This document shows positions 4,440 through 60,028 of a stretch of DNA of 64,000 nucleotides, piece by piece. Numbering within the stretch: position 1 is the stretch's first letter; each line of letters begins with the position of its first letter. The DNA is taken from the NCBI GenBank assembly GCA_028713575.1, contig JAQTOB010000004.1, positions 5,250-69,249 of the forward strand, given 5' to 3'. A program made the translations under genes and the position numbers. The stretch comes from Patescibacteria group bacterium (GTDB lineage: Bacteria; Patescibacteriota; Patescibacteriia; UBA2591; UBA6264). A model generated the notes under the pieces. The model saw nothing but the letters and a program-made list of their open reading frames with translations. It was not told the origin of the DNA and ran no database searches.

Positions 4440-4960
4440 CTTTTGTCAATACCCTGTAAAAATCCACCCATAATAGTACACATCCTGTGCAAGTCCACCC
4501 ATAGTATTACACCTTAGTTTTAACAAACTCATTTACGAGATTATCTACGAGGCGAGACCTCGTAGATCGTAGATTTTGATCATTACATCCTGGGGTCTGA
4601 CCCCATAAACATTCCTTCTAAAACCCTTATCAACAAAGGATTATATGACAAAAATTTCAATTTGGTGTGATTTTGATTAAATTTTTTTATCTACGAGGCG
4701 AGACCTCGTAGGAGGCGTATCTACGAGGCGAGACCTCGTAGATTGTAAATTTTTTATGGGGCTTGGGGTCTGACCCCCTGGGGTCTGGGGTCTGACCCCA
4801 TAAACATTCCTTCTAAAACCCTTATCAACAAAGGATTATATGACAAAAATTTCAATTTGGTGTGATTTTGATTAAATTTTTTTATCTACGAGGTTATCTA
4901 CGAGGCGAGACCTCGTAGATTGTACCTCGTAGATTGTAAATTTTTTAAAGAATGTTAAAA
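4440..4960. repeat. Repeat-rich intergenic region. It holds two copies of the MITE-like element (ggggtctgacccc...tttcaatttggtgtgattttgatt) and four copies of the hairpin tctacgagg-cgaga-cctcgtaga.
   Basis: Direct reading of the sequence. The hairpins are at about 4544-4566, 4689-4711, 4719-4742 and 4898-4920. The element cores begin at 4592 and 4765. Confidence 0.8.
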
Positions 4961-4968
4961 TAAAAAAC

Positions 4969-6471: not shown

Positions 6472-6605
6472 CCCCCTAAACATCCCTTCTAAAATTGGGT
6501 TGGGGCCTGGGGTCTGACCCCCTAAACATCCCTTCTAAAATTCGCATCAATAAAGGGTTATAGAGCAAAAATTTCAATTTGGTGCGATTTTGATTGATTT
6601 TAATA
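6455..6605. repeat. MITE-like element copy, with two ggggcctggggtctgaccccc heads and one conserved tail tttcaatttggtgcgattttgattgatttt
   Basis: Sequence identity to the elements at 4592, 29248 and 37236-37930. Confidence 0.75.
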
Positions 6606-6787
6606 TCGCAGCAATATTGCAGGCGAAACTTGTAATATTGACACTTAATATGAGTCCAAGATATTGCCCTTTACGATTTTTCCGAATGGTTTTATAATAT
6701 AAACATAAATAATTAATAAAATTTATAGACCCTGTTAGAAATTTTAAGTAAATAGAATTTTTAATCGGGACCAAGAGAACAAAATTT

Positions 6788-15455: not shown

Positions 15456-17145
15456 ATTTTAATAAAGAATTATCTTGACCGGAAAGAACGATAAAAATTG
15501 ATTCTTTCAGCTGATTGGTTAAAATTTTGAAGACTTTGTTCGTTATTTCGTTATTTAGGTCAGCATAAATAGCGTCCACGATTATTAACAAAGGCTTTTT
15601 TATCAGGCAATAAGCGGCCTGCAAAGAAAAAAGTTCCGTTAAATTCATTTTCATTGATTGAAAATCATGACCCATGAATTTGCTTAATGACATAATAAAA
15701 TTAAATTCTTTAAAGGGAGAAAGTGTTTGAAATGTTTTTTCAACATCTAGGGGCGTAATGTCTTCTTTATTTTTTCCTGTTAAAATTTCACCGATTTTTT
15801 TTTCCGTTGACAAATCGTTTTTGATAAAATAAGCGGGAAAAGAGGCTTGCTGCCAATGTTTGTAAAAAAATCTTTTACCATTGATTTTTACTATCCAGCT
15901 GGAAATATTGAATTGACCTTGACCGGAAAAAATAAGACCTAACTGATTTTTATTTGGATTTTTCCCAAAAATGAGAATTTTTTCACTTTTTTTGAATTCA
16001 AATTTTAGATGATGCGAATATCCGTCTGATTTTATTAATTTTGTTTTTTTTGCATTAAAGGAAATGGTTTGGAAATTTTTGAAATTGATAAATCGGCGCT
16101 TATTGGTTTTAGATTTAGGAACAGAGAGGATTAGCCCCAGCTTGGTAGGCAATGAATAAAATCCGATTTGTAAACTGGTGTAGAGTAAGCGAGTGAGATA
16201 AAAGATAATGATGCCAGAAAGAAATAGATTGCCAATTTCTATTTGCAGAAAAAAAGAAGGAAAATATATTTGCAAAATATAAAATATTCCGGCCAAAAGA
16301 ATTAAAAGAGCGAAAATTACCCGTGGTCCGAAATTGAGCCAAAGATTTCGGCGGATGCGAAAATAAGTGTCAATTTTTACTAAATCATCAAGTTTTTTCA
16401 AGCTTTTTTCTTCCAAGCGATGGCTTTGAATAAAGGGCAATTCATAAAGGTCGGTTACAATATTTTTGATTATTTCCGAATACAAAGTGGTTTCCTTGGT
16501 AATGTAGTTTTTTGCAATGAAATAGCCAATAACTCCAATGGCGATGTTTATAGGAATGAAGGCAAGAACAATGATTAAAAGTTTTGTGTTATAGAAAAAA
16601 GTGATGGAGATTAGTCCTAAAATATAAAGAATCCAACGCATTGAACCAATAAGGCTTTTTTCAACCCCCATTTGTAGCAAAGGAAGATGATATGATATTT
16701 TGGCAATTAAAGAGGCCTTGTTTTGACTTTTTGTTTTGAAAAAGGGACGATGCAGGAAGATTTTAAACCAACCCCTTCTCAAATCGTTTAATAAATAAAC
16801 AATTAGGGTTTTTTCTATTTTTAAACCAATAAAAGAACAAACAAGATAAATCATTACTCCGGCGGAGAGAATAAAAAAAACGATTGGCATTTTTTTGCGG
16901 ATTAAAAGAGCGCTGAATTGGGAAATAAAACTGTGGCTAAACAAAGACAAAATAACTTCTAAAATAACCAGAAAGAAAATAAGCAAAATCATGATTTTTA
17001 CTTCTTTTTTGTGTTTTTTTATAAAACGCAAAAGGTATTGGAAATGAAAATTTTCCAATTTCAGTTGATGGATGTTTTTTTTAATTTTTTCCCTTTGTTG
17101 ATACAAAGAGATCTGATAGTTTTTTTCTTCCATGATGGACCTCAA
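15409..17145 (-). CDS. ABC-exporter-like membrane protein (N-terminal 6-TM domain plus C-terminal NBD-like domain) with all catalytic motifs degenerate (pseudo-ATPase)
   Basis: The TMD carries an ABC_membrane-like LLNDLRRGWFKIFL region. In the NBD-like part the Walker A position reads ILIFGKNPNKNQL (no GxxGxGKS/T). The signature position reads FSLQAAY instead of LSGGQ. The Walker B position reads LLIIVDAIYADLN, so the catalytic E is replaced by A. Confidence 0.55.
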   Translation of the reverse strand: MRSIMEEKNYQISLYQQREKIKKNIHQLKLENFHFQYLLRFIKKHKKEVKIMILLIFFLVILEVILSLFSHSFISQFSALLIRKKMPIVFFILSAGVMIYLVCSFIGLKIEKTLIVYLLNDLRRGWFKIFLHRPFFKTKSQNKASLIAKISYHLPLLQMGVEKSLIGSMRWILYILGLISITFFYNTKLLIIVLAFIPINIAIGVIGYFIAKNYITKETTLYSEIIKNIVTDLYELPFIQSHRLEEKSLKKLDDLVKIDTYFRIRRNLWLNFGPRVIFALLILLAGIFYILQIYFPSFFLQIEIGNLFLSGIIIFYLTRLLYTSLQIGFYSLPTKLGLILSVPKSKTNKRRFINFKNFQTISFNAKKTKLIKSDGYSHHLKFEFKKSEKILIFGKNPNKNQLGLIFSGQGQFNISSWIVKINGKRFFYKHWQQASFPAYFIKNDLSTEKKIGEILTGKNKEDITPLDVEKTFQTLSPFKEFNFIMSLSKFMGHDFQSMKMNLTELFSLQAAYCLIKKPLLIIVDAIYADLNNEITNKVFKILTNQLKESIFIVLSGQDNSLLKYDKKYFLFQKGVEKI

Positions 17146-18319
17146 GATAATATTTATATAAAGAAGGGATTTTAATATTTTTCAAATCCTTTTTTAGTTT
17201 TTTTTGTAATCGGGGAGAATAAGAACCGTAAAAATATTTAGTAATGATGCGGAAAAAAGTTTCAGACAAATTTTTAATTTGTTGTTCGTCATTAACTAAG
17301 ATTTTTTGGCTGATAATTTGCAATAATTGGTTATTTAAAGAATTCTCTTTTTTATAAAGAAGTTGGGAAAAATGTTTCATTTTATTTTTTGGCTTAAAAG
17401 AAAGAAGTGACGTCCGCCAATAACTTATGGTTTTTTTAACAAATGAGTCCTCTAAACTAATTAAACGGTCATGGAAACAATAGCCTAAAAAATTAAATTT
17501 TTCTTTTCCATTTATCAATCTGGTTTTTTCTTTTTTAATTTCTAATTTTAATTCTTTAAGGTGTTGATATAAATATTTTTCAATTTCTTTAAGTTTTTTT
17601 AGACTTGGGTCAAAGGCGATTAAATCGTCGCCGATGCGACGATAAAGGCAAATTTTTGGCCCCAAGTATTTGTCTAGGTCGTCCAAATAAAGATTAGTAA
17701 AAAGGGCGATTAAAGGCACGCCTTGAATAACGCCGATTTTTGGCTGATAAATTTTTTTATCCTTATAAACCGCATTTTTAATGAAAAGTTTAAGGATTTC
17801 CATCAGCGGTTTTTCAGAAATAGTTTTTTCAAGTTTGGTTATTAAAATATCTTGGTCAATGTAATCGGAATAATTTTTAAGGTCGGCAATCAGAATAAAA
17901 TCTTTATCATAATAACGTTGATAGCGTCGCGCCACGCTACGACTGGCGTAAAAACTGCTATGAGAAGAACGATAAGAGAATAGATAAGGCGAATAAAGAT
18001 TTTCAAAAATTGGCTCTAAAACCCGATAAATAGCTTGAGCTTTAATTCGGGCTCTAACTGAATAAACATATATGTCTCTTAAAGAACCGTCTTTTTTTGG
18101 AATGTAATGGCAAATAGCTGGCGCCAAAGGAGTAATTTCAATTAATTCTTTCCTCGCTTTTTGGCAGAATTCTTCTGCCTGAGATTTAACGTCGTTTAGG
18201 CCAAGTCCTTCAATGCCGACGTATCTTGCCGTTAAGGATTTTTGGTCAAATTTTTTAGCCAAATCCAAATAGGCCTGCCGAATGTTTTTAATGTCAATTA
18301 TTTTTTCAAAAAGTTTCAT
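17081..18319 (-). CDS. Reverse transcriptase (group II intron / retron-like RT motifs 0-7 plus a roughly 130-aa C-terminal extension) with an unusual IGDD motif C
   Basis: Motif 0 is RYVGIEGLG and motif 1 is IPKKDGSLRDI. Motif 2 is SVRARIKAQAIYRVLEPIFE and motif 3 is FSYRSSHSSFYA. Motif 4 is ILIADLKNYSDYID and motif 5 is GVIQGVPLIALFTNLYLDDLD. Motif C is LYRRIGDDLIAF and motif 7 is LKLEIKKEKTRLIN...FNFLGYCF. The gene overlaps the downstream gene by 65 nt. Confidence 0.8.
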   Translation of the reverse strand: MKLFEKIIDIKNIRQAYLDLAKKFDQKSLTARYVGIEGLGLNDVKSQAEEFCQKARKELIEITPLAPAICHYIPKKDGSLRDIYVYSVRARIKAQAIYRVLEPIFENLYSPYLFSYRSSHSSFYASRSVARRYQRYYDKDFILIADLKNYSDYIDQDILITKLEKTISEKPLMEILKLFIKNAVYKDKKIYQPKIGVIQGVPLIALFTNLYLDDLDKYLGPKICLYRRIGDDLIAFDPSLKKLKEIEKYLYQHLKELKLEIKKEKTRLINGKEKFNFLGYCFHDRLISLEDSFVKKTISYWRTSLLSFKPKNKMKHFSQLLYKKENSLNNQLLQIISQKILVNDEQQIKNLSETFFRIITKYFYGSYSPRLQKKLKKDLKNIKIPSLYKYYLEVHHGRKKLSDLFVSTKGKN

Positions 18320-18330
18320 TTTTATATCAA

Positions 18331-18369
18331 GCCCCGTATTTCAAAAACAAAATACGGGGCTGTTTTTTT
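18331..18369 (+). terminator. Strong hairpin (gccccgtattt / aaatacggggc, 11-bp stem) followed by tgttttttt on the + strand. It lies 12 nt upstream of the minus-strand RT start codon.
   Basis: Read directly from the sequence. It would terminate + strand (antisense-to-RT) transcripts. Alternatively it is part of a structured RT leader RNA. Confidence 0.55.
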
Positions 18370-22450: not shown

Positions 22451-22680
22451 TAGAAAAATAAAGGAATTGATGATGCTCCTGATGAGGTGGTTCCGATGAC
22501 ACTTAAAGATACTTAGGAGGATACTTGGGAGCAAGGCTCCGAAGTAAGTCTCATAAGTACGGAAAAAACAAGACCGGAGATAGAAGTCACACGCAATAGC
22601 CATGGATTAAATGGATTAAAAAAGTTTTATAAAGGGTTCTATATTCTATATTATATTATATTTTTCATTTTTCAGATTTT

Positions 22681-22710
22681 CTTTTTGGCAGGTGCTCACC
22701 TGCCAAAAAG
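22681..22710. repeat. REP-like palindrome ctttttggcaggtg-ct-cacctgccaaaaag immediately upstream of the Y1 transposase gene
   Basis: Perfect 14-bp inverted repeat. Half-site echoes (gacctgccaaaaaa, acccgccaaaaac) follow. Confidence 0.75.
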
Positions 22711-22752
22711 AAAATGACCTGCCAAAAAAGACCAAACCCGCCAAAAACCAAA

Positions 22753-23412
22753 ATGTCTCTTAAAAATTCACTTAAAATTTACATTAAAGATGGAATCTAT
22801 CACATCTATAACCGGGGCATAGAAAAAAGAAACATCTTTTTAGATGAACAGGATTATAAAGTATTTTTATATTATTTGAAAAGTTATTTAACACCAGTTG
22901 GTCAACAAGAAAAACCGCCCTATGGTATTGATAGAAATGTTTTAGATTTCACCCTTTATAAACAAATCCGGCTTTTTTGTTTTTGTTTAATGCCAAATCA
23001 TTTTCATTTAATGATTCAGCAATTAACTGAAAGGGCGATTATAGAATTTATGAAGCGTTTAACTAACGCCTATGTAAGATATTTTAATGAAAAGTATGAT
23101 CGCAAAAGTATAGGTCCGCTTTTCCAGGGCAAATATAAAGCTGTGTTAATAAAAAAAGAACAACAATTCTTATATTTGCCGTATTATATCCATTTTCACA
23201 ATCCGGAAGGATTATATAGAAACAAGAGAGATGCTGAGTTAATCAAAAAAATACAAAATTATCCTTGGTCAAGTTATGCCGATTATTTAGGTAAACGTGA
23301 CACCAAATGGATTTATAAAAAAGGAATAATGGAGCAATTTATGGAAACAGAAGAAATAAAGCCGGAGACGGAAACTACGCGCAAAATTTTAGGTTCAACG
23401 GTTATAGATTAA
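22753..23412 (+). CDS. Y1 HUH transposase (IS200/IS605 TnpA-like; REP-associated tyrosine transposase-like)
   Basis: YHIYNRG is present. The HUH motif is CLMPNHFHLM. The candidate catalytic Tyr lies in LFQGKYKAVLI. The gene is flanked on both sides by related palindromes. Confidence 0.65.
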   Translation: MSLKNSLKIYIKDGIYHIYNRGIEKRNIFLDEQDYKVFLYYLKSYLTPVGQQEKPPYGIDRNVLDFTLYKQIRLFCFCLMPNHFHLMIQQLTERAIIEFMKRLTNAYVRYFNEKYDRKSIGPLFQGKYKAVLIKKEQQFLYLPYYIHFHNPEGLYRNKRDAELIKKIQNYPWSSYADYLGKRDTKWIYKKGIMEQFMETEEIKPETETTRKILGSTVID

Positions 23413-23425
23413 AGGGAATGTGTAT

Positions 23426-23447
23426 TTGGAAGGTGAGCACCTTCCAA
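23426..23447. repeat. REP-like palindrome ttggaaggtg-ag-caccttccaa immediately downstream of the Y1 transposase
   Basis: Perfect 10-bp inverted repeat of the same ttggNaggtg family as 22681-22710. Confidence 0.75.
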
Positions 23448-26232: not shown

Positions 26233-27666
26233 ATGAATTTAAATCAATTAACAATTTTATCGGTTCATCAGGGTTTAAAAAAGAAAGAATTTTCCAGTCA
26301 AGAATTGACTAAAGATTGCTTAACAAAAATAAAAAAAAGCAATAAAGAAATTAATGCTTTTATTACTGTTTTAGAAAAACAAGCTTTAAAACAAGCCGAG
26401 GAAATTGATAAAAAAATTAAAATTCAAGGCGTGGATAATTTTTTAACTGGTATTCCCCTGGGAATTAAAGACAATATTTTAATTCAAGATGTTGTTTGTA
26501 CTGCTGGTTCAAAAATTTTAGAAAATTATCAGGCTATCTATGATGCCACGGTAATTAAAAAATTAAAAAAAGCTGGAGCGATTTTTTTAGGCAAAACCAA
26601 TCTTGACGAATTCGCCATGGGTAGCTCTACTGAATCGTCTGCCTTTGGTCCGACCAAAAATCCTATTAATTTATCTTATATTCCCGGTGGTTCTTCTGGC
26701 GGTTCTGCCGCCGCAGTCGCGGCTAATATGTGTTTGGCTGCCCTTGGTTCTGATACTGGCGGTTCTGTCCGTCAACCGGCGGGATTTTGTGGCGTCGTTG
26801 GACTAAAACCAACCTATGGGCGGGTTTCTCGCTATGGCTTGATTGCCATGGCTTCTTCTCTTGATCAAATCGGACCATTGACCAAAAACATTGAAGACGC
26901 GGAAATTTTATTTAAAACAATTAAGGGCAAAGATGATTTTGATGCCACTAGCGTTGAGGTAAAAGATGAAGACCCAGGGAAAATGAAAACAAAAAAAATA
27001 AAAATTGGCCTACCTAAAGAATATTTTATCCAAGGGCTTGACTCGCAGATAAAGGAAGTCATCAATAACTTAATTAAAAAATGGCAGAAGCAAGACGCTG
27101 AATTTATAGAGGTTAGTTTGCCCCACGCATCGCTCGCTTTGGCTTGCTATTATATTATTATGCCCGCGGAAGTTTCTTCTAATTTGGCTCGTTATGACGG
27201 CATTAAATACGGATTTTCCACCAATGGGGAAAATAAAAATTTATTAGATGTTTATTTAGATTCTCGAACCACGGGTTTTGGCGAAGAAGTCAAACGCCGA
27301 ATTATGCTCGGCGCCTATACTTTGTCTGCCGGCTATTATCAGGATTATTATTTACAGGCGCAGAAAGTAAGAACTTTAATCAAAAAAGATTTTGAAAAAC
27401 TTTTTCAAGAAAAAGATATAGATTGTTTATTAACCCCAATTAGCCCAACTTTGCCCTGGAAATTGGGAGAAAAAATAAACAACCCTTTAAGTATGTATTT
27501 GGCGGATGTTTATACCGTTTCCGCCAATCTGGCTGGTTTGCCGGCGCTTTCATTGCCTATTGGTAAAATTGATGATTGGCCGGTCAATGGGCAATTAATC
27601 GGTAATTATTTTCAGGAAAGCAAAATTCTGCATCTCGGAAAAATGATTGAAAAATTAGGACTTTAA
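26233..27666 (+). CDS. gatA: Glu-tRNA(Gln) amidotransferase subunit A (amidase signature family)
   Basis: The amidase signature is GGSSGGSAAAVAANMCLAALGSDTGGSVRQPAGFCGVVGLKPTYGRVSRYG. Confidence 0.95.
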   Translation: MNLNQLTILSVHQGLKKKEFSSQELTKDCLTKIKKSNKEINAFITVLEKQALKQAEEIDKKIKIQGVDNFLTGIPLGIKDNILIQDVVCTAGSKILENYQAIYDATVIKKLKKAGAIFLGKTNLDEFAMGSSTESSAFGPTKNPINLSYIPGGSSGGSAAAVAANMCLAALGSDTGGSVRQPAGFCGVVGLKPTYGRVSRYGLIAMASSLDQIGPLTKNIEDAEILFKTIKGKDDFDATSVEVKDEDPGKMKTKKIKIGLPKEYFIQGLDSQIKEVINNLIKKWQKQDAEFIEVSLPHASLALACYYIIMPAEVSSNLARYDGIKYGFSTNGENKNLLDVYLDSRTTGFGEEVKRRIMLGAYTLSAGYYQDYYLQAQKVRTLIKKDFEKLFQEKDIDCLLTPISPTLPWKLGEKINNPLSMYLADVYTVSANLAGLPALSLPIGKIDDWPVNGQLIGNYFQESKILHLGKMIEKLGL

Positions 27667-27718
27667 GGTTTTTGGAGACCAGGTCTCCAAAAACCTTTTG
27701 GAGACCAGGTCTCCAAAA
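27667..27718. repeat. Two adjacent REP-like palindromes (ggtttttggagacc-a-ggtctccaaaaacc and ttttggagacc-a-ggtctccaaaa) directly after the gatA stop codon
   Basis: Perfect inverted repeats. The same family clusters around the second Y1 transposase gene at 58931-59843. Confidence 0.8.
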
Positions 27719-29244: not shown

Positions 29245-29465
29245 TTTGGGGGCTGGGGTCTGACCCCCTAAACAGACCCCCCAAAACCATTATTAGATTT
29301 GCAAAGTAGAACGATTTTTCTAATTTGGTGCGATTTTGTTGAATTTATTATATCATACCACTACAACTTCTTGCAGGTCAGACCTGCAAGAAGTCTCTGC
29401 AAGAAGTACTGCAAGAAGTAGGGCAAAAATTTTGATTTGGTGTAATTTTGACGGATTTTCATTTT
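29245..29465. repeat. MITE-like element copy (ggggctggggtctgaccccc...tttctaatttggtgcgattttgttgaattt) with an appended hairpin cttcttgcagg-tcaga-cctgcaagaag and half-site echoes
   Basis: Sequence similarity to the elements at 4592, 6455 and 37236. The hairpin is at 29367-29393. Confidence 0.7.
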
Positions 29466-29548: not shown

Positions 29549-30403
29549 ATGTTTGATTTGTTTTTTAATTTTTTACATAATTTTAAACCCCAGCCGATTA
29601 TTTTACGGCTGGGATTTTTTAATGTCTATTGGTATAGTTTTTTAATTGTTTTGGGCCTTGTTTTAGGTTTGATTTTGGTTTTTAAATTGGCTCCGCGATT
29701 TAAAATAAAAAAAGAAAATTTGGAAGATTTGATTTTTTATTTAATTATTGCTGGTTTTATCGGCGCCAGGCTTTATCATGTTTTTTCCGAACTTCCTTAT
29801 TATTTTAAAAATCCGTTAGATGTTTTTAAGGTTTGGAACGGAGGTTTGGGGATTTACGGTGCGATTATCGCCGGTTTGCTTATTTTGTTTTTTTCCGCAA
29901 AAAAATATAAGATAAAATTTTTTGTTTTGGCTGATTTATTTGTGCCTGCTTTGGCTTTGGGTCAGGCTATTGGTCGCTGGGGAAATTATTTTAATCAGGA
30001 AGTTTTTGGCAGGCCGACTGATTTACCTTGGGGAATTTTTATTGAAGCGGCTAATCGGCCATTTGAGTTTTTTTCTGAACAGTATTTCCACCCGACTTTT
30101 TTATATGAATCAATCTGGAATTTTTTGATTTTTTTTGTTTTAATCTTAATGATAAAATCTAATTTTTATAGAAATTTTTTTGGAGAAAATTTTTATGGAG
30201 GTCGGACCTCCAAAGAAAACCGTTCGGGTGTTATTTTTGGATTTTATCTTATGTTTTATTCCTTCGGCCGGTTTTGGCTGGAGTTTATAAGAATTGATTC
30301 CCAACCAATGCTATTGGGACTGAGGCTGGCGCAGGTAATCTCAATTTTAATGTTTATTGTCGGCGGAGTGATATTAATGAGAAAATATAAAATATTAGAA
30401 TAA
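29549..30403 (+). CDS. lgt: Prolipoprotein diacylglyceryl transferase
   Basis: The Lgt signature is GQAIGRWGNYFNQEVFGRPTDLPWGI. It is a multi-TM protein. The ATG at 29549 (MFDLFF...) is preferred over the TTG at 29528. Confidence 0.9.
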   Translation: MFDLFFNFLHNFKPQPIILRLGFFNVYWYSFLIVLGLVLGLILVFKLAPRFKIKKENLEDLIFYLIIAGFIGARLYHVFSELPYYFKNPLDVFKVWNGGLGIYGAIIAGLLILFFSAKKYKIKFFVLADLFVPALALGQAIGRWGNYFNQEVFGRPTDLPWGIFIEAANRPFEFFSEQYFHPTFLYESIWNFLIFFVLILMIKSNFYRNFFGENFYGGRTSKENRSGVIFGFYLMFYSFGRFWLEFIRIDSQPMLLGLRLAQVISILMFIVGGVILMRKYKILE

Positions 30404-31107: not shown

Positions 31108-31402
31108 CGGGGTTGTAAAAATAAGATTTTATAGTATAATGATAACATAAAATATAAGAACATTAAAACGCCAGAACACTAGAATATAGTGACAGAAATA
31201 CAATAACTAATTATTCTAATTATTCCAATGAATACCCAATTTCCAACCCCCAATGTCTAAAAATTTTTGGTCATTCAGTCATTGGTTATTGGGATTTTGT
31301 TAGGTCAATTAGAAATTAGGTTAATTAGGTTAATTTTATCTTATTTGTTCCAATGTTCCTATGTTATAATGTTCTAATGTTCTAATATTAAAATGATTTA
31401 TT

Positions 31403-33152: not shown

Positions 33153-33374
33153 GATATGGCAACATTGTAATTAGAAATATTAAGATTAAAACAAACAAGA
33201 TTAATTTTTCCTTATAAATTACAAATTTCTTCGTTCCTCACTCAAGAGCTGCACTTAGGAGATTTGTTCCTAAGTATTTCTGATGGGGGATGCACCCCAT
33301 CAGTTTGCCCCTAACGTCAATTTTAAGTTGTATATTCCAATGTTAAGATGTTAGAATGTTAAAATGATTTTTGT

Positions 33375-33932
33375 ATGGCGCAAATAAAAAAAACAGAAAC
33401 AAAAAAAACAAAACTATACAGAAATGTCATTATTAGATTTTATTGGTTAGTTATTCTTGTTATTTTTCTTTTAAGTTTTTCATTTGAATATTTTGTTATT
33501 ATTAAGCCGAAAATCCAGCAGACAAAAAATAACGGACCACTGGATTTAGCCAGTCGTCAAGTCGTTTTAAATGAACAAAAAGATTATCTTGGAAAATTAA
33601 AGGTCTTAAAAAATGAAGCAGAGAACATTAATCGCGTTGAATTGGAAAAAATAAATTATGTCTTGGCGGAAAAAATAAATGTTTCTGATATTTTAAAACA
33701 AATATCCATCATTTCTCAGCAACCAAAATTTAATCTGGAGGGTTTTAGCTATAAATACGGAGAAGGCGTTTTAATCTTTAATTTTAATTTTGTCGGTGGG
33801 ACTTATCAGGATGTAAAAAAATTCTTGGAAGAAATTGAAAAAAATATCCGCGTTATGGATGTTACCAATATCGCGATTAAAAACGCCGGCGACGGATTTT
33901 CTTTGGTTATAAAAAGTTATTATTTGGAATAA
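33375..33932 (+). CDS. pilO: PilO-like type IV pilus biogenesis protein
   Basis: Single N-terminal TM helix plus periplasmic coiled-coil/ferredoxin-like region. It sits between pilN and pilB. Confidence 0.4.
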   Translation: MAQIKKTETKKTKLYRNVIIRFYWLVILVIFLLSFSFEYFVIIKPKIQQTKNNGPLDLASRQVVLNEQKDYLGKLKVLKNEAENINRVELEKINYVLAEKINVSDILKQISIISQQPKFNLEGFSYKYGEGVLIFNFNFVGGTYQDVKKFLEEIEKNIRVMDVTNIAIKNAGDGFSLVIKSYYLE

Positions 33933-35997: not shown

Positions 35998-36153
35998 AGA
36001 TTTTTCCCAAAAAGAGTTAGAATTATTACTGAAAGAATTGATAGAAATGACCAAAGTGATTGCTTTAAATATTTTAACCTTAAAAGGTAAAAATAATTTT
36101 ATATTTTAAATTGTCATTTTAATTTTTGAGATTTGCATTTTACGCTTAATTTT

Positions 36154-37227
36154 ATGTCTACTCAAAATGAAATTATTTTAAATCGTATTTGTCAAAATAG
36201 CGCCGAAAAAAGGGCCTCAGAAGTTTATTTATTGCCAGCTCAGCCACCCTTTGTCAGAATTGACGGAAAAATGGGAATTTTGGCCGGCGAAAGCATTATC
36301 ACCGCTTCTTTTATCAACGATTTTTTTAAAAATATTCTTGATGAAAGAGAGCAGTCCGTTTTAGAAAAAGAAAAGCAGATTGAAGTGATAAAAAATATCG
36401 GGAAAATGGGGGAGTGCCAAATAGATATTTATTATCAAAAAAATTCTTTGGCTTGCCGTATAAAATTATTGGCCCAAGAAGTTATTGACTTGGAAAAACT
36501 TGGCTTGCCTAAAATGGTTACTCGTTTTGCGGACTTTTTTAAAGGCATTATTTTTATTGCCGGACCGCGCGATTCAGGTCGTTCCACTTTGGCAAATTCT
36601 ATTTTAAATCATATTAATAAAAATCAAGCTAAATTTATCGCCACCGTAGAAAAACCCATAAAATCAATTTTAATTGGAAGAAGAAGCGTAGTTGAACAAA
36701 GAGAAGTGGGGAAAGATGTTCTTTCTTTTTTGTCCGGTCTCCGTTATATTCGGCAAAGAAATGCTGATGTCGTTTTTGTTTCGCAAATAGATGACGCAGC
36801 GACAATGGATGAAATTTTTGCTATTGTTGAGGCCGGAAGCTTGGTTTTTGCCATTATGGATACGGAATCAGCCATTAAAACAATTAAAAGAATTTTGCAT
36901 TTTTATCCTACTGACAAAGAAGAAACCGCCCGTTATTTTTTAAGTGAAAATTTAGCCGGCATTGTTGTTTCCCGTCTGGTTCCTAAAATTGGTGGTGGCC
37001 GAATTAGGGCTTTGGAGGTTTTGGCCGGTACGCCGGCGGTTCGTTCAATTATCGCCAGTGGACGCTTTCATCAATTAGCCGGTGTTATCCAGGCGACAGA
37101 AGACCAAACCTCTGTTTCTTTAGACCAATCCTTGGTTGACTTAGTCACTTCAGGGAAAGTGGTTTCTGAAGAAGCCATAAAACATTGCAACAACGAAGAA
37201 ATTTTTAGGAATTTGTTGAGAAAATAA
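36154..37227 (+). CDS. pilT: PilT-family retraction-ATPase paralog with degenerate catalytic motifs
   Basis: The PilT-like C-terminus is ALEVLAGTPAVRSIIASGRFHQL...SLDQSLVDLV. Walker A reads AGPRDSGRST (Lys replaced by Arg). Walker B reads DVVFVSQIDD, with Gln in place of the catalytic Glu of GEMRD. Confidence 0.7.
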   Translation: MSTQNEIILNRICQNSAEKRASEVYLLPAQPPFVRIDGKMGILAGESIITASFINDFFKNILDEREQSVLEKEKQIEVIKNIGKMGECQIDIYYQKNSLACRIKLLAQEVIDLEKLGLPKMVTRFADFFKGIIFIAGPRDSGRSTLANSILNHINKNQAKFIATVEKPIKSILIGRRSVVEQREVGKDVLSFLSGLRYIRQRNADVVFVSQIDDAATMDEIFAIVEAGSLVFAIMDTESAIKTIKRILHFYPTDKEETARYFLSENLAGIVVSRLVPKIGGGRIRALEVLAGTPAVRSIIASGRFHQLAGVIQATEDQTSVSLDQSLVDLVTSGKVVSEEAIKHCNNEEIFRNLLRK

Positions 37228-37235
37228 AGAGATAA

Positions 37236-37930
37236 TTAGATAATTGGGGTCGGAGATAATTGGGGTCTGACCCCATGAGCATCCCTTCTGAGATAATTGG
37301 GGTCTGACCCCATGAGTATCCCTTCTAAAACATACATGATAATTGGGGTCTGATAATTGGGGTCTGACCCCATGAGCATCCCTTCTAAAACATACATCAA
37401 TAAAGGATTATAGAACGAAAATTTCAATTTGGCGCGATTTTGATTGATTTCCAATAATTTTTTATCAAAACAACGATTTTTGACACTAATTTTGGGGTCT
37501 ACACTAATTTTGGGGTCTGACCCCATGAGCATCCCCTCTAAAACATACATCAATAAAGGATTATAGAACGAAAATTTCAATTTGGTGTGATTTTGATTGA
37601 TTTCCAATCACTAATTTTGGGGTCTGACCCCATGAGCATCCCTTCTAAAACATACATCAATAAAGGATTATAGAACGAAAATTTCAATTTGGTGTGATTT
37701 TGATTGATTTCCAATAATTTTTTATTAAAACAACGATTTTAATTGAAAATTGATAATTATTTAATTTACATTTAATCACTAATTTTGGGGTCTGACCCCA
37801 TGAGTATCCCTTCTAAAACATACATCAATAAAGGATTATAGAACGAAAATTTCAATTTGGTGCGATTTTGATTGATTTCCAATAATTTTTTAACAAAACA
37901 ACGATTTTAATTGAAAATTGATAATTATTT
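37236..37930. repeat. Array of at least 4 full plus partial copies of the roughly 100-115-bp MITE-like element (ggggtctgaccccatgagcatcccttctaaaacatacatcaataaaggattatagaacgaaaatttcaatttggtgYgattttgattgatttcc) between pilT and pilC
   Basis: Direct reading. The copies are near-identical, contiguous or separated by short AT-rich linkers. Confidence 0.85.
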
Positions 37931-37981: not shown

Positions 37982-39193
37982 ATGTTATTTGAATATCAAG
38001 CGAAAAATTTAAAAGGAGAAACCATCACCGGAACAATTGAATCCATTAATCAGAACGCCGCCCTTGAGATGTTGGCGCGCCGGCAAATGATTATTATCTC
38101 CCTGAAAGAAACAAGCGCTTTGCCCATTTGGCGCCGGCCGATTAATCTGTCTTTTTTAGAAAGAGTAACCGGCAAAGATATGGTTTTTCTTTCCCGCCAA
38201 TTATCCGTAATGGTTATGGCGGGCTTGCCTTTGGTTGAATCTTTGGAAATTTTGGCGCGCCAAACAAGCAAACCGGCCTTAAAAAAGATTGTGGAAAGCG
38301 TTGCGGAAAATGTTCGTGGCGGTTCAAGATTTTCCAGCGCTTTAGCAAAGTATCCCAAAGTCTTCAACAATTTTTATATTAATATGGTGCGCGCCGGAGA
38401 AACCGCGGGCAAACTTGACGAAGTCTTAGATTATTTGGCCAATGAACAGGAAAAAAATTATGATTTAATGAGTAAAATTAGGGGGGCTATGATTTATCCG
38501 ATTTTTGTTATTTCTGCGGTTATTGGCGTGATGATTTTGATGATGGTTTTTGTTGTCCCTCAATTAACTGACATTTTAAAGGAATCGGGCGTATCATTGC
38601 CCTTGCCAACCAAAATTCTTATTGCCACTAGCGATTTTTTAGAAAATTATACTTTATTAATCGTTTTGTTCCTTGTGGTTTTTGTTGTCGCTTTCAGGTT
38701 TTTTTTAAAAAGTAAAGCGGGTCAGATGATTTGGGACAAAACGCTTTTAAAAATGCCGATTTTTGGTGTTCTTTTTAAACAAGTTTATTTAGTTCGTTTT
38801 ACTCGCAGTCTTTCTACTTTGATTATTGGCGGTATTCCTTTAACCGCGGGATTAAAAATTGTTTCCGAAGTGGTAAGTAATTATGTTTTTAAAGAAATAA
38901 TCCTTGACGCGATTATTGACGTGGAAGAGGGACGTTCGGTCAGCAATGCTTTTCTTAATTCTTCAGCCGTGCCTAAAATGCTTCCCCATTTAATGGCGAT
39001 TGGAGAAGAAACCGGCAAGCTTGACGAAGTTTTGGGGAAAATTGCTGATTTTTATTCTCGGGAAGTGGAAAACATTTTAAGCAAATTAGTCACTTTGCTT
39101 GAACCGATTATTCTTATTTTTTTAGGAGTAGTTGTTGGCGGCATGGTTGCTTCTATTATTTTGCCAATGTATAAACTTGCCACCGCCTTTTAA
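37982..39193 (+). CDS. pilC: Type IV pilus inner-membrane platform protein PilC (GspF family)
   Basis: Two GspF repeats (MVRAGETAGKLDEVL and MAIGEETGKLDEVL), each with TM helices. Confidence 0.9.
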   Translation: MLFEYQAKNLKGETITGTIESINQNAALEMLARRQMIIISLKETSALPIWRRPINLSFLERVTGKDMVFLSRQLSVMVMAGLPLVESLEILARQTSKPALKKIVESVAENVRGGSRFSSALAKYPKVFNNFYINMVRAGETAGKLDEVLDYLANEQEKNYDLMSKIRGAMIYPIFVISAVIGVMILMMVFVVPQLTDILKESGVSLPLPTKILIATSDFLENYTLLIVLFLVVFVVAFRFFLKSKAGQMIWDKTLLKMPIFGVLFKQVYLVRFTRSLSTLIIGGIPLTAGLKIVSEVVSNYVFKEIILDAIIDVEEGRSVSNAFLNSSAVPKMLPHLMAIGEETGKLDEVLGKIADFYSREVENILSKLVTLLEPIILIFLGVVVGGMVASIILPMYKLATAF

Positions 39194-43803: not shown

Positions 43804-44160
43804 ATGAAAACAAGTAGTTTTAAAGAAAATTTAAAAAAGAAAATGGATGAATATGTTCATTTTGTTTATAAAATTACTCTTAATTTTCCTAAAGCGGAAA
43901 TATATGGAACTGTTTCTCAATTAAGAAGGGCGTCTTTGTCGGTGGTTTTAAATTATATAGAAGGATTTGCCAGAAGAAAGAGACTTGTTCAATTGAATTT
44001 TTTAGAAATTTCTTACGGGTCGTTAAAAGAATCAAAATATCTTTTACATTTTGCTTTGATTGAAAATTATTTGGACACAAAAGACTATAAAATTGCTTTA
44101 AAAATGGCAGAAGAAATCGGAGCTATGCTTTGGACAGAAATATCTAATTTAGATAAATAA
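43804..44160 (+). CDS. Four-helix-bundle protein (TIGR02436-like; 23S rRNA intervening-sequence protein family)
   Basis: 118 aa. The sequence YKITLNFPKAEIYGTVSQLRRASLSVVLNYIEG...LKESKYLLHFA is typical of the family. Confidence 0.6.
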   Translation: MKTSSFKENLKKKMDEYVHFVYKITLNFPKAEIYGTVSQLRRASLSVVLNYIEGFARRKRLVQLNFLEISYGSLKESKYLLHFALIENYLDTKDYKIALKMAEEIGAMLWTEISNLDK

Positions 44161-44242
44161 TTAATTGTTTTTTAGCCAAAGGCTGATCCGTCTCCGACGG
44201 AAATGTTCTAATGTTCTAGTGTTTTAATGTTTTAATGTTTTT

Positions 44243-44611
44243 ATGTTTTTATGTTTTTATGTTTTTATGAATCCTAATAAATGGGAAAATTTAATATTTA
44301 TGGCTGAGGAAAAATTTGGTTTAGACAAGAAATACATGGAAGATTTTGAGGTTTCCGAACTTTCTACGGGCGAGAAAATTATGGGCCAAAAAGAAATTGT
44401 GGAATTTAAGAGTCCTTTGGGTCGGATAAAGTTAGAAAAAACTTCCCGGCCAAAAGTCATTGATAAAAAAGTTTTACACACCAAGAGAATTGGCGGCAGA
44501 ACCGCCATTGATTTCGTTTATTCGCCGGACGAAAGAGTTGAAGAGCTTAAAATTTATAAAGAAAATAAAGAAGGGGAATGGGAAGAGTTAACGGCATTGA
44601 AGGAATTTTAA
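44243..44611 (+). CDS. Hypothetical protein
   Basis: ORF only. The likely start is the later ATG at 44300 (MAEEKFGL). Confidence 0.3.
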   Translation: MFLCFYVFMNPNKWENLIFMAEEKFGLDKKYMEDFEVSELSTGEKIMGQKEIVEFKSPLGRIKLEKTSRPKVIDKKVLHTKRIGGRTAIDFVYSPDERVEELKIYKENKEGEWEELTALKEF

Positions 44612-51994: not shown

Positions 51995-52026
51995 AATTAA
52001 GCCGAAATTCGGTTTAAATAAAGAAA

Positions 52027-52600
52027 AGTCCTCCTATTTTTGAGGGGGTCTTTTCTTTGTTTTGAGACTCGGTTTCCCGTTGGAAACCGAGTCTCTTCAC
52101 TTCTTGGTTGTTTTGAGACTCGGTTTCCCGTTGGAAACCGAGTCTCTTCACTTCTTGGCTTCCTGTTTAAAGTTCGGTTTCCCGCTTTGCTTCGTAGCGA
52201 GCTTTGCTCTGCTACTGGGGCTGGAAGCCGAACTTCTTTATTTTATAAAAAGCCACTTGGTCTTTAAAGTCCTCCTATTTTTGAGGGGGTCTTTTCTTTG
52301 TTTTGAGACTCGGTTTCCCGTTGGAAACCGAGTCTCTTCACTTCTTGGCTTTGATACTTTGGCGCAATCCCTGATTATGCCGGCTATGGCCGATTTAGCG
52401 CAATAAAGCTTCTATTATATATACACTTTGTTTTGAGACTCGGTTTCCCGTTGGAAACCGAGTCTCTTCACTTCTTGGCTTCCTGTTTAAAGTTCGGTTT
52501 CCCGCTTTGCTTCGTAGCGAGCTTTGCTCTGCTACTGGGGCTGGAAGCCGAACTTCTTTATTTTATAAAAAGCCACTTGGTCTTTAAAGCCTTTTTTATA
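52027..52600. repeat. Complex tandem repeat region built on a 32-nt perfect hairpin gagactcggtttcc-cgtt-ggaaaccgagtctc (4 copies) plus a twice-repeated 104-bp structured segment and duplicated leader tcctcctatttttgagggggtcttttctttg
   Basis: The hairpin copies are at 52064-52095, 52115-52146, 52305-52336 and 52435-52466. The 104-bp segment is at 52157-52260 and 52487-52590. Confidence 0.85.
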
Positions 52601-52689
52601 GGGAGGTTTGACCCCTTCCTCTTGTTATAAATATTATAAATGTTATAATAATTTTCTACTATTTTCGTAAAATTTTCGTATTTCGTAGC

Positions 52690-53220
52690 ATGTTCCACCT
52701 CAGAGAGAAAATCCTTTTTCATCAAATTAAAAACGGTGACGAACAGGCCTTCACCGTCTTTTATAATACCTATAAAGACAGAATTTATCGTTTTATTTAT
52801 TTTAAAGTTTCTGATCGTGAAAAAGTTTATGATTTGGTTTCCGAAGTTTTTATTAAAATATATGATTATATTAAAGAGGGGAATGACATTGATAATTTTC
52901 AAGCTTTTTTGTATAAAATCGCTCGTAATTTAGTAATAGATTTTTATCGCACTAAAAAAGAGGAAATTTCTTTAACTGATGCGCCGGAAACAGTTTCTCC
53001 TATCAATTTAGAAAAAGAAGTGGGAGATAAGGTTGCCGTGGAAAACGTCAAAAGATACCTTAATAAAATTAAACCAGAATACCGCGAAGCGGTTCATCTT
53101 CATTTTTTTGAAAATTTTTCTTTTTCCGAGATTGCGGATATTATCAATCAATCCGAAGGCAATGTTAGGATTAGGGTTTATCGCGGCATTAAGCAATTAA
53201 AAGAGGTTTTAAGGGGTTGA
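52690..53220 (+). CDS. RNA polymerase sigma factor, ECF (sigma-70 group 4) family
   Basis: Region 2 is FYNTYKDRIYRFIYFKVSD...DLVSEVFIKIY. Region 4 is FSFSEIADIINQSEGNVRIRVYRGIKQLK. Confidence 0.8.
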   Translation: MFHLREKILFHQIKNGDEQAFTVFYNTYKDRIYRFIYFKVSDREKVYDLVSEVFIKIYDYIKEGNDIDNFQAFLYKIARNLVIDFYRTKKEEISLTDAPETVSPINLEKEVGDKVAVENVKRYLNKIKPEYREAVHLHFFENFSFSEIADIINQSEGNVRIRVYRGIKQLKEVLRG

Positions 53221-53760
53221 ACCCCTTCTATATGTAGGGGTTCAACCCCCTCCCCAATAATCGCCATCATAAACTTTTTACACAGGAACTTTTTACACAT
53301 TTTTACACAGGACATTTTTACACAGGTTGAACCTGTGTAAATTTTCATTTGCATATTTCACAAAACAAATCCAAAATCCAAAACCCAAATTTTCATAATC
53401 ACTTGGGAACCGAGTTTCTAAAAAGCAAGAAAGCAAGAGATGGATTCTACGCTAGAAACTCGGTTTCCCGTTGGAAACCGAGTTTCCTTCTCCCCAATAA
53501 TCGCCATCATAAACTTTTTACACAGGAACTTTTTACACATTTTTATACAGCACATTTTTACACAGCACATTTTTATACATTTTTACACAGGTTGAACCTG
53601 TGTAAATTTTCATTTGCATATTTCACAAAACAAATCCAAAATCCAAAACCCAAATTTTCATAATCACTTGGGAACCGAGTTCCTAAAAAGACATTTTTAC
53701 ACAGGTTGAACCTGTGTAAATTTTCATTTGGCATTTAGTCATTTGATATTGATTTGACAT
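53213..53760. repeat. Repeat region downstream of the sigma gene. It has palindromes ggggttgaacccc and ggggttcaacccc, a roughly 200-bp direct repeat (two copies), and a compensatory variant of the 52-kb hairpin (gaaactcggtttcc-cgtt-ggaaaccgagtttc).
   Basis: Direct repeat copies at about 53246-53440 and 53490-53690. ttacacaggttgaacctgtgtaa palindromes occur at 53313-53341 and again in the second copy. The variant hairpin is at 53454-53485. Confidence 0.8.
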
Positions 53761-53867
53761 TTGACATTGGAAATTTGACATTTCACGTTTTAATGGTGTA
53801 TAATTTTTCCCCTTTCTTCGTCTTATTATTTGTCATTTAGCCATCAAATAGTTAAATCTCAATTTCA

Positions 53868-59293: not shown

Positions 59294-60028
59294 TACTCCA
59301 AATTAAAAAATAGCCTTATGAGAAAAATTAAATTTGTTAATGATGAGTATTATCATATTTATAACCGTGGAGTAGATAAACGGATTATTTTTGAGGATAA
59401 AGATGATTTAAAAAGATTTTTCCAAAGTATGAAAGAGTTTAATGTTTTAGAGCCAATAGGTAGCATTTATGAAGCGGTTCGTTGTAAAACTTTTAGAGAA
59501 ACTTTTGGAGACCAAGTCTCCAAAAGTTTTACAAATAATGAAAGATTGGTTGATTTTATTTGTTACAATTTACTTCCCAATCATTATCATTTCATTTTAA
59601 AACAGTCAGTTGAAGATGGAATTAAGAAATTTATGCATAGACTCGGATTGGGTTACGCAATGTTTTTCAATCAAAAGTATAAGCGCAACGGTTCATTGTT
59701 CCAAGGACCGTTTAAGGCGATTCATATTGATTCCGAAGCTTATTTGCTTCACTTGAGCGCTTATATTAATTTGAATCATAGGGTTCATTCTAAATTTGAG
59801 GATTTTGGAGACCTTGAGGATTTTGGAGACCTGGTCTCCAAAAGATATAAATCAAGCTGGGAGGAATATTTGGGATTAAATCAAGAAAAATTTTGTCAAA
59901 AGGAAATTCTTTTAGACCAATTTGACACAATAAAAAGCTATAGAGAGTTTGCCGAAGAATCATTAAAAGGAATAAGAGAAAGAAAGGAAATAAAAAAGTT
60001 TCTTTTAGATGATCAAATAATTGGTTGA
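59273..60028 (+). CDS. Y1 HUH transposase paralog 2 (IS200/RAYT-like). It carries in-frame REP-palindrome insertions and a Phe at the position aligned with the catalytic Tyr of paralog 1.
   Basis: YHIYNRG is present and the HUH motif is LLPNHYHFIL. GPFKAI aligns with GKYKAV of paralog 1. REP copies are at 59501-59527 and 59821-59843 inside the ORF. The start may instead be the ATG at 59318. Confidence 0.55.
   Translation: METWSPNYSKLKNSLMRKIKFVNDEYYHIYNRGVDKRIIFEDKDDLKRFFQSMKEFNVLEPIGSIYEAVRCKTFRETFGDQVSKSFTNNERLVDFICYNLLPNHYHFILKQSVEDGIKKFMHRLGLGYAMFFNQKYKRNGSLFQGPFKAIHIDSEAYLLHLSAYINLNHRVHSKFEDFGDLEDFGDLVSKRYKSSWEEYLGLNQEKFCQKEILLDQFDTIKSYREFAEESLKGIRERKEIKKFLLDDQIIG

Follow-up and report, generated by a model that had tools for sequence, protein, structure and literature searches.

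A palindrome-headed, probably non-autonomous repeat of a Patescibacteria clade and its array between pilT and pilC

Mycobacterial interspersed repetitive units (MIRUs) lie between the genes of operons and vary in copy number between strains. The Rickettsia palindromic elements (RPEs) occur both in intergenic regions and in frame within genes, have one reading frame free of stop codons, and include in-gene copies that are orthologous between species (PMC10969869). Repeats of the BOX, RUP and SPRITE types cluster in the same spacers, and the elements can nest in one another (PMC10969869). Repetitive extragenic palindromes (REPs) can be told by a GT[AG]G (or CGTC) tag at the palindrome's foot (PMC3733652, PMC6006769); each tnpA_REP gene is flanked by a REP family of its own, and several such families may exist in one genome (PMC6006769). 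In bacterial interspersed mosaic elements (BIMEs), palindromes are combined with other conserved motifs into tandem clusters of variable copy number (PMC6006769, PMC5581495). Here we describe a repeat unit from a stretch of 64,000 nucleotides (nt) of a Patescibacteria group bacterium (contig JAQTOB010000004.1, positions 5,250 to 69,249; hereafter the window), where copies of the unit occupy four loci (A–D), the last of them being an array between the genes pilT and pilC. The unit is best read as a palindrome-headed, non-autonomous repeat of a Patescibacteria clade. We lean towards regarding it as non-coding, selfish mobile DNA, whose arrays grow locally and whose dispersal to other sites would depend on a Y1 enzyme.

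Patescibacteria are considered to have extremely streamlined genomes, in which the spacers measure a few dozen bases. In this setting the repeat family has inflated several spacers about ten- to twenty-fold, split a pilus operon, entered a conserved enzyme in frame and persisted across species, which shows selfish repeats, perhaps maintained by their host, to be active even here. What the array displays are the ordinary dynamics of repeats; more noteworthy are the copy inserted in frame, its family's persistence across species and the Y1 genes carrying palindromes of their own.

Structure, distribution and age of the repeat copies

The core of the unit spans 98 nt without gaps and is composed of a head (GGGGTCTGACCCC), a block (CCCTTCTAAAA) and a tail (TTTCAATTTGGYGYGATTTTG); the unit is possibly 10-12 bases longer on the 5' side of this core. 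The head is a perfect 13-nt odd-centred palindrome, the tail is invariant and AT-rich, and the middle is a second, decayed inverted repeat, which in the copy on contig L013 is perfect over 12 bp and in L052b, a copy from another species, near-perfect (contigs other than the window are referred to by L numbers). Eight full and at least five partial copies are present in the window, all of them on the plus strand. The exact head occurs 12 times, with the central T on the plus strand every time (starts at 4592, 4765, 4787, 6463, 6509, 29255, 37262, 37299, 37359, 37512, 37619 and 37787), against a chance expectation of 0.02. The tail core ATTTGGYGYRATTTTG is found nine times, exclusively on the plus strand (0.08 expected), and head and tail are separated by a gap of exactly 54 nt eight times (0 expected). 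Full 98-nt units start at 4592, 4787, 6509, 29255, 37359, 37512, 37619 and 37787, and partial units at 4765, 6463, 29381, 37262 and 37299. Counts so far above chance confirm the repeat family with a palindromic head and a conserved tail that a preliminary description of this DNA had reported from four loci. The head has one orientation per locus, and each head belongs to a full unit or to a local partial duplicate of one.

An alignment of the unit and a profile were built from 14 distinct copies representing two species. None of the 14 copies has an indel over the 98 columns, at pairwise identities of 61-98%, and positions 1-13 together with most of positions 64-84 are invariant in all of them, the other species included. 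The spacing between the head and tail blocks is constant although divergence elsewhere in the unit reaches 39%. The bases directly 5' of the head follow the pattern NNYT (TTTT, ATCT, TACT, TCCT and others), with no GTAG or GTGG among them.

The array (locus D, 37236-37930) separates a T2SSE (PilT-like) gene on its left (36133-37227, a weak domain match) from a T2SSF (PilC) gene on its right (37982-39193, a strong match), and the claim that it splits the pilT-pilC junction therefore stands. Its first part (37236-37358, plus strand, as are all components of the array) consists of 3'-truncated partial units and half-heads that all restart at GA(GA)TAATTGGGG, with tandem periods of 37 and 14 nt. 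The full unit D1 follows (37359-37456), and an 18-nt tandem duplication (ACACTAATTTTGGGGTCT twice, 37483-37511), which ends at the palindrome centre, leads into the full unit D2 (37512-37609). D2 forms a 107-nt period with the full unit D3 (37619-37716), which in turn forms a 168-nt period with the full unit D4 (37787-37884); beyond D4 lies pilC-proximal sequence that is partly conserved in the relative L016. The whole is a set of nested tandem duplications with periods of 14, 18, 37, 107 and 168 nt (Tandem Repeats Finder). The 168-nt duplication also carries about 60 nt from downstream of the unit, and the 14-nt duplication has a TGA...TGA microhomology at its bounds. The truncated copies have a common 5' restart point and often stop with GGGGTC or GGGGTCT, at the head's palindrome centre, and the same signature of arm duplication is common to every other palindrome family in the window (loci A and C and the flanks of both Y1 genes discussed below). 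The number of full copies differs among assemblies encoding an identical PilC: four in the window, four in another arrangement in L001, and one in L005. We infer that the array grew on the spot by tandem duplication of several periods, rather than by repeated insertion, and that it still varies between strains. The clustering of break points at the tip of the head hairpin would fit slippage or repair at a stalled hairpin.

A PilC identical to that of the window is encoded on contigs from JGI, NCBI, ENA and Logan assemblies, and its relatives at 69-83% identity come from Patescibacteria genome bins. Further copies of the unit, on contigs L009 and L013, belong to the same organism as the window, the accessions of the proteins encoded there lying about 200 from that of the window's transposase-like protein in the same two NCBI assemblies. 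The exact 23-nt tail had no match in the public genome-contig collection; an exact-pattern scan of the viral collection gave none either, and in public metagenomes the head-tail pattern was found on only six contigs, from one JGI sample. Such exact-pattern scans are too strict, because relatives carry a tail variant, GGGACG. The 14-copy profile retrieved two full copies with this variant in another species (L052, E ~1e-21) and, with E values of 3e-9 and weaker, diverged copies in L055, the closest relative, and the family is therefore that of a small clade and not of one species: it belongs to a narrow clade of Patescibacteria and has expanded in this organism.

Comparison with relatives also bears on the age of the insertions. 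The pilT-pilC spacer is 754 nt long here versus 36 nt in L017, and the unit is absent from this position in the relatives compared, the spacer being taken up by unrelated palindromes (about 150-180 nt) in L015, L016 and L018 and by an inserted gene in L019. The junction between a gene for a 340-residue protein and lgt measures about 320 nt here versus 27 nt in L017, and the junction between the GT4 and DUF1611 genes, about 290 nt with a copy here, is 12 nt long and empty in L052. A copy upstream of a Mur-ligase gene is common to L052 and L013, at the identical site and in the same orientation; the second copy in L052 is located upstream of a gene for a 236-residue protein. These comparisons show copies of mixed age, some of them old and retained at the same site between species, others lineage-specific, including the array between pilT and pilC. 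With a core of 98 nt, at least ten loci, and filled sites here that are empty in relatives, the unit resembles a miniature inverted-repeat transposable element (MITE). The label 'MITE-like' given to it in the preliminary description holds in so far as the copies are small, non-coding, dispersed and variable in number, but not as regards terminal inverted repeats and target-site duplications, both of which are absent.

One copy is not intergenic. The DNA profile locates the unit in frame in the C-terminal part of a conserved ATP-grasp protein (L009, 525-618; L055, 3276-3369), and when the L009 open reading frame (ORF) is compared with its L052 orthologue, BLASTP homology extends on both sides of about 30 residues encoded by the element. 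Of the 120 homologues listed, at least 13 have the corresponding peptide, QN.xKLKK...G[ST][DV]P, and every one of these ranks within the 31 closest (at least 48% identity); the peptide is missing from several close orthologues and from all listed homologues below 42% identity. In some of the ATP-grasp proteins, a native IKIIKGDLK segment is retained beside the element peptide. An in-frame insertion with continuous flanking homology, as known from RPEs, is found in this one gene only. The tetrapeptide at the position of the head differs among the ATP-grasp homologues (P0241-P0271), which have GSDP, GTVP, GPGP or GSGP, and each variant could be encoded by a different palindrome.

The three remaining loci of the window combine the unit with palindromes of other families. 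Locus A comprises the full unit A1 (4592-4689, plus strand, nhmmer 86.5 bits), a solo head with a duplicated half-head (GGGGTCTGACCCC-CT-GGGGTCT, 4765-4786, plus strand) and, directly downstream of the latter, the full unit A2 (4787-4884, plus strand), which is identical to A1. The underlying duplication, with a period of 195 nt, is present in the window and missing from the assembly L022 (two copies versus one). A companion palindrome, ATCTACGAGG-CGAGA-CCTCGTAGAT, occurs in four copies (4543-4567, 4691-4711, 4719-4743 and 4896-4920, spanning 4543-4920) that interleave with A1 and A2, and both its 5' and 3' arms are tandemly repeated. A further repeat around A1, GATTTTGAT, is a remnant of another tail. 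The gene to the left (2936-4366), whose C-terminus bears a Por_Secre_tail domain, runs on the minus strand, which places locus A between divergent gene starts.

Locus B begins with a partial unit consisting of the head and CCCTTCTAAAA (6463-6496, plus strand), the first copy of a 46-nt tandem duplication, followed by the full unit B (6509-6606, plus strand, nhmmer 93.9 bits). The stop codon of the ORF 4969-6471 (at 6469-6471) is the TGA at the centre of the head palindrome, and the repeat thus supplies both the stop codon and the last few residues of the protein. An imperfect companion palindrome, CAATATTGCAGG-CGAAA-CTTGTAATATTG, lies 3' of unit B (6612-6640). At the other end of the same ORF, an extended -10 promoter-like site (TGTTAAAAT, 4934-4968) ends 7 nt before the ATG, which would imply a leaderless or nearly leaderless mRNA.

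At locus C, the full unit (29255-29352, plus strand, nhmmer 71.7 bits) is diverged, with 68 of 98 positions matching the alignment consensus and no indel. It is followed by a partial unit, C2 (29381-29462, plus strand, profile positions 21-96, E 6e-6), where, instead of the usual head, there is the palindrome ACTTCTTGCAGGTC-A-GACCTGCAAGAAGT with repeats of its 3' arms. The companion palindrome of this locus (29366-29394) is perfect and odd-centred, and its apex, GGTC-A-GACC, equals that of the head except that the centre base is the complementary one. Here the 3' arm is repeated three times, in the strains L026 and L028 twice, and arm indels of 7 and 13 nt are seen between strains. Two appended perfect hairpins named in the preliminary description were recovered: TCTACGAGG-CGAGA-CCTCGTAGA, of which locus A has four copies, and, at locus C, CTTCTTGCAGG-TCAGA-CCTGCAAGAAG; the imperfect palindrome at locus B adds a third. 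The contig L030 (Ga0172377_10022907) continues with unrelated sequence from about position 4175 onwards, after the locus C palindrome, and either the genome has this palindrome at some other place as well or the repeat is the junction of a chimeric contig.

Y1 proteins and the proposed mobility of the unit

Two Y1/IS200-like HUH proteins, resembling the REP-associated tyrosine transposases (RAYTs), are encoded in the window, both on the plus strand (gene 1, 22714-23412; gene 2, 59318-60028), and either is a candidate for the enzyme that would mobilize the unit. The two proteins are 35% identical to each other and exhibit the HUH and tyrosine motifs (NHFHL/NHYHF and YIHFHNP/YINLN in the alignment). 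Their scores against the Pfam family PF01797 (Y1_Tnp), 34.5 and 26.6 bits, are both above the cut-off of 23, and the product of gene 1, the sole protein tested against the NCBIfam model REP_Tyr_transpos, reaches 33.5 bits versus a cut-off of 80. The protein family has more than 7,900 homologues, mostly from Patescibacteria, some of which are named RayT by JGI.

Gene 1 is flanked by the hairpins TTTTTGGCAGGTG-CT-CACCTGCCAAAAA and TTGGAAGGTG-AG-CACCTTCCAA (22676-22715 and 23426-23447), which are mutually inverted copies with one compensated stem change, each followed by tandem repeats of the 3' arm; this palindrome occurs nowhere else in the window. The palindrome of gene 2, TTTTGGAGACC-W-GGTCTCCAAAA, is found four times upstream of the gene (58931, 59111, 59180 and 59269), twice within its own ORF (59499-59529 and 59821-59843) and twice about 31 kb away (27665-27718). 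RAYT genes are expected to be flanked by palindromes of their own that recur elsewhere; the palindrome of gene 2 does recur, whereas that of gene 1 is, within the window, confined to the flanks. Five of the six Y1 genes examined (gene 2 of the window and those on L040, L045, L048 and L050) have their own odd-centred palindrome both beside the gene and inside the ORF, the in-ORF palindrome being located in the same variable loop, at about codons 54-60, in some cases accompanied by another near codon 160 or spanning the stop codon. Between five Patescibacteria lineages these palindromes differ in sequence and retain their symmetry. The palindrome of one homologue, GGAGGTC-C-GACCTCC, has a GGTC-N-GACC apex. 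As both the head and the palindrome of locus C share this apex, the head seems to belong to the class. A perfect palindrome inside the lgt ORF (TGGAGGTC-G-GACCTCCA, 30196-30212) has the same core as the Y1-flanking palindrome on L048; about one palindrome with 8-bp arms such as this is expected by chance in 64 kb.

In the mechanism we propose, a RAYT-like Y1 (HUH) transposase, of which the genome encodes at least two, would recognize the head hairpin, and the unit would be dispersed to new sites through single-stranded DNA. Effects on the expression of pilC, if any, would be by-products and not the reason for the existence of the element. A broader and less probable reading, which we put forward tentatively, is that domesticated RAYT-like Y1 transposases form a large, undescribed radiation in Patescibacteria, with the unit and the other odd-centred palindromes as their substrates, and with palindromic repeats lodged in frame in housekeeping genes, of which the ATP-grasp gene is an example. 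If it is true, a REP-RAYT-like system would reshape spacers and even proteins in these extremely streamlined genomes, with in-gene and intergenic copies evolving in concert.

Several observations sit uneasily with a selfish element dispersed by a Y1 enzyme. Simple neutral decay does not account for the complete lack of indels at such divergence, and this lack, together with two invariant blocks at a fixed spacing, could reflect a constraint that a purely selfish element would not need. Copies kept upstream of the same start codons in two species could likewise mean function and not just persistence. Terminal inverted repeats are absent from the copy alignments, the W-rich stretch with GGGGTCTGACCCC at the 5' end and GATTTTGAYYRATTT at the 3' end not being reverse complements, and the search for target-site duplications that the preliminary description had proposed came out negative, the flanks of independent loci sharing no direct repeat. 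The head is never found alone away from a full unit, unlike in classical REPs. No Y1 gene flanked by GGGGTCTGACCCC was found in the approximately 200 kb examined, where tblastn detected only the two known genes and no third paralogue, and both of these are flanked by palindromes other than the head; the peptide motifs that the head would encode are absent from the 120 Y1 homologues scanned. No transposition event has been caught, and the census covers about ten loci.

Orientation of the copies and alternative explanations

All copies in the window are on the plus strand, as are nearly all genes, and the GC skew of the plus strand is positive throughout. A different picture emerges from the other contigs. 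In the gene cluster of L009 and L013 (ATP-grasp, 236-residue protein, GT4, DUF1611 and Mur ligase), the three copies are reversed relative to the genes, the head ending 10 nt before the DUF1611 start codon in L009 and 8 nt before that of the Mur ligase in L013, and the third copy being the one within the ATP-grasp ORF. The two copies in L052 are also reversed, 7 and 11 nt before the starts of the gene for the 236-residue protein and the Mur-ligase gene, respectively, and one copy in L012 is co-oriented with its flanking genes. Altogether, five of the ten loci compared are co-oriented with the flanking genes and five are reversed; the copies occupy tiny intergenic spacers of a streamlined genome, in either orientation, plus one gene. 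The statement that the unit always has the same orientation is thus correct inside the window but not across loci, and the even split is, as far as orientation goes, what the preliminary description had itself named as speaking against its proposal. That proposal, a transcribed function, was argued from two premises, an orientation that never changes and a location directly 3' of a gene in every case; both hold only within the window, and the second fails even there at locus A, with its divergent gene starts, while locus B overlaps the upstream ORF. On the two contigs with a readable GC skew (the window and L052), all six loci have the unit on the G-rich strand; two independent contigs do not amount to evidence of strand bias, with L009, L012 and L013 being too short for a skew call, and we note a bias relative to the replication strand as a lead.

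Among the alternatives to a selfish mobile repeat, the strongest, though in our view an unlikely one, is that the unit is a portable promoter or 5' leader. It owes this rank to the reversed copies abutting real start codons and to promoter-like hexamers on both strands. Read on the reverse strand, the unit would provide TTGAAA and TATAAT-like boxes and a leader with a hairpin, together with a stretch rich in A and, in many cases, the start codon; read on the sense strand, it would provide CTGACC-N16-TAAAAY. The reverse-strand version finds support in the copies ending 7-11 nt before real start codons (L013 and L052b at the Mur ligase, L052a at the gene for the 236-residue protein, and L009a at DUF1611), to which A1 can be added as pointing, more distantly, towards the gene 2936-4366. 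An ATG is found 8-12 nt beyond the head at seven of 11 loci, with an eighth having GTG at 7 nt, and a perfect TATAAT can be read from the alignment on the reverse strand of most copies. For the sense strand, the scan flags CTGACC-16-TAAAAT at locus B, and five of the ten loci are upstream of a co-oriented gene. However, the geometry is non-canonical on both strands, with a gap of only 9 nt between TTGAAA and TATAAT, and with a sense -10 box, TAAAAC, that lacks the final T in most copies. Half of the loci face the 3' end of a gene whichever strand is active, and the scan of the array yielded 7 predictions, not clearly more than the 4.7 +/- 2.6 in shuffled sequence. The closeness to start codons is in any case to be expected, because any insertion into spacers of 12-40 nt adjoins a start or a stop codon.

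Less probable again is a transcribed cis-acting RNA or small RNA, be it as a terminator, as a 3' hairpin that stabilizes mRNA or as a small RNA carried by genes at their 3' ends. The co-orientation of all window copies with the surrounding plus-strand genes would suit this explanation, as would the GC-rich head hairpin that folds in every copy, and REP hairpins of Escherichia coli are known to stabilize upstream mRNA (PMC3733652). Against it stand the mixed orientation in one genome, the position of locus A, which is not 3' of a gene, and the lack of the element at the pilT-pilC junction in relatives with the same operon. T-rich bases stand before the head and ATGAGC or CTAAAC after it, so it lacks the U-tract of an intrinsic terminator; terminator scans of the four loci flagged no head hairpin, and neither these nor the promoter scans of the four loci gave a match consistently coincident with the unit. 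No match of the unit was found in Rfam, either for the whole window at gathering thresholds or for the array at permissive E-values, the searches returning only two tRNAs and sub-threshold noise. The structures of six folded copies differ except for the head hairpin, which is present in each, and the folding z-scores of four of the six (-0.01, +0.78, -0.32 and +0.54) are near those of shuffled sequence. The RNAalifold consensus reaches only -7.75 kcal/mol, mostly contributed by the head, whose hairpin alone is shared when both strands are folded. The middle inverted repeat favours its register, with 71% paired versus at most 51% when slid, but no pair covaried above shuffled controls in two explicit tests of this repeat.

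The reverse strand of the unit has an open frame in 12 of the first 14 distinct copies examined. A protein-coding reading of this frame was rejected for the intergenic copies, which show no codon-position bias: variable sites are distributed 23/18/20 over the three codon positions, and the frame is open in seven of ten intergenic copies versus 4.4 expected under neutral change, which is not clearly above. The minus-strand ORF 37236-37607 and a gene called by JGI on the L001 array are by-products of this open reverse frame.

We give still less credence to the unit being a binding-site array, in which head and tail at a fixed distance would be recognized by a DNA-binding protein (a nucleoid-associated protein or a regulator). 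The BIME elements of E. coli bind gyrase. They also bind the integration host factor (IHF; PMC3479197), and a bound protein would be in keeping with the complete lack of indels and with two blocks that are invariant at unchanged spacing in all 14 distinct copies; nothing else in the data points to such a role. However, the IHF consensus WATCAANNNNTTR is not matched in the unit by our own reading of the alignment, no protein emerged as a candidate for the binding, roles in the cell envelope are all that the flanking genes share, and the element is missing from the same operon in relatives.

Finally, it is very improbable that the array is an assembly artefact, with short reads of dispersed copies wrongly joined between pilT and pilC: although assemblies disagree on the order and number of copies, five of the eight pilC-carrying contigs end inside the array or just downstream of it, and L030 passes into unrelated sequence at the palindrome of locus C, three assemblies (the window, L001 and L005) span the region from pilT to pilC and agree in the left part through D1 and in the last copy beside pilC, and loci B and C, which are single-copy, have the same or nearly the same sequence in 3-8 independent assemblies, so that the family is real and only the middle of the array is uncertain. 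Because assemblies differ in the order and number of copies, the exact structure of the array in a short-read assembly is uncertain, and that given here for the window may partly be an assembly product. The repeats are breakpoints of short-read assemblies of this organism and limit the contiguity of its genome; the array could be used as a strain marker.

Other features of the window and comparison with known systems

The window contains further repeats and genes that may be of interest in their own right. Dense repeats surround a gene for an extracytoplasmic function (ECF) sigma factor (52690-53220; repeats at 52000-53800), including a 162-nt exact duplication with a period of 320 nt, the palindromic motifs GAGACTCGGTTTCC-CGTT-GGAAACCGAGTCTC in five copies and TTTACACAGGTT-G-AACCTGTGTAAA in three, and the half-arm TTTTTACACAG in runs. 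An 8-nt repeat (AATGTTCT or AATGTTTT) forms runs at 31344-31399, 33331-33370 and 44202-44269, just upstream of pilM (31403) and of the genes at 33375 and 44243, and could represent a shared regulatory motif. A reverse transcriptase gene on the minus strand (17081-18319) has a sub-threshold match to group II intron reverse transcriptases/maturases (146 bits versus a cut-off of 300); a hairpin lies beside it (18330-18361), no intron RNA was detected there by Rfam, and a gene for a four-helix-bundle, Avd-like protein is far away (43804-44160); the two might belong to a diversity-generating retroelement or to something else. A protein of 921 residues (101-2866) has a Hint/intein-like (PT-HINT) domain at residues 390-530, and no identical protein is on record in the public collection.

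Considered against described repeats, the unit lacks the terminal inverted repeats and target-site duplications of classical MITEs as well as the tag and doublets of REPs, and a cognate gene was not found in the approximately 200 kb examined. It is like REPs and BIMEs in being a GC-rich extragenic palindrome of high local density in a genome with Y1 HUH proteins of the RAYT kind, and the window Y1 genes, each with a palindrome family of its own, recall REPtrons. It differs from REPs in that its head is 13 nt long and perfect, has no GT[AG]G tag, forms no inverted doublets and never occurs without the 85-nt body, and in that no cognate Y1 gene flanked by the unit head was found. Similar to the palindrome-associated transposable elements (PATEs) derived from IS200/IS605, the unit has a hairpin near one end and no terminal inverted repeats or target-site duplications, a Y1 family is present in the genome, and the location on the G-rich strand in two contigs with readable skew gives a hint of strand bias; in contrast to PATEs, no autonomous insertion sequence with the same ends was found, the right-end hairpin is decayed, and no conserved target tetranucleotide was established. 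We found no paper in the searchable literature that ties RAYT/REPIN systems or MITE-like repeats to Patescibacteria. If the link to the Y1 proteins is true, REP-RAYT biology would extend to a major uncultured radiation.

The unit is also comparable to BOX, RUP and SPRITE repeats, being modular, varying in the number of its sub-modules and clustering with other repeat types, but it has no sequence similarity to them, and BOX possesses defined A, B and C modules. MIRUs differ from it by short ORFs that overlap the stop and start codons of neighbouring genes, which are not seen in the unit. To our knowledge, tandem arrays are not a feature of RPEs, and in forming them, as well as in its occurrence in another phylum, the unit departs from that group; it also has a single in-gene site, with most copies being intergenic, whereas Rickettsia conorii has dozens. 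Nevertheless, both the unit and the RPEs are palindrome-containing repeats of about 100-150 nt in small, streamlined genomes, with intergenic as well as in-gene copies, one frame that lacks stop codons, and in-gene copies at orthologous sites in different species. The closest kin of the unit are, in our best reading, the RPEs of Rickettsia, the REP/BIME elements and the pneumococcal BOX elements, and among these it behaves most like an RPE.

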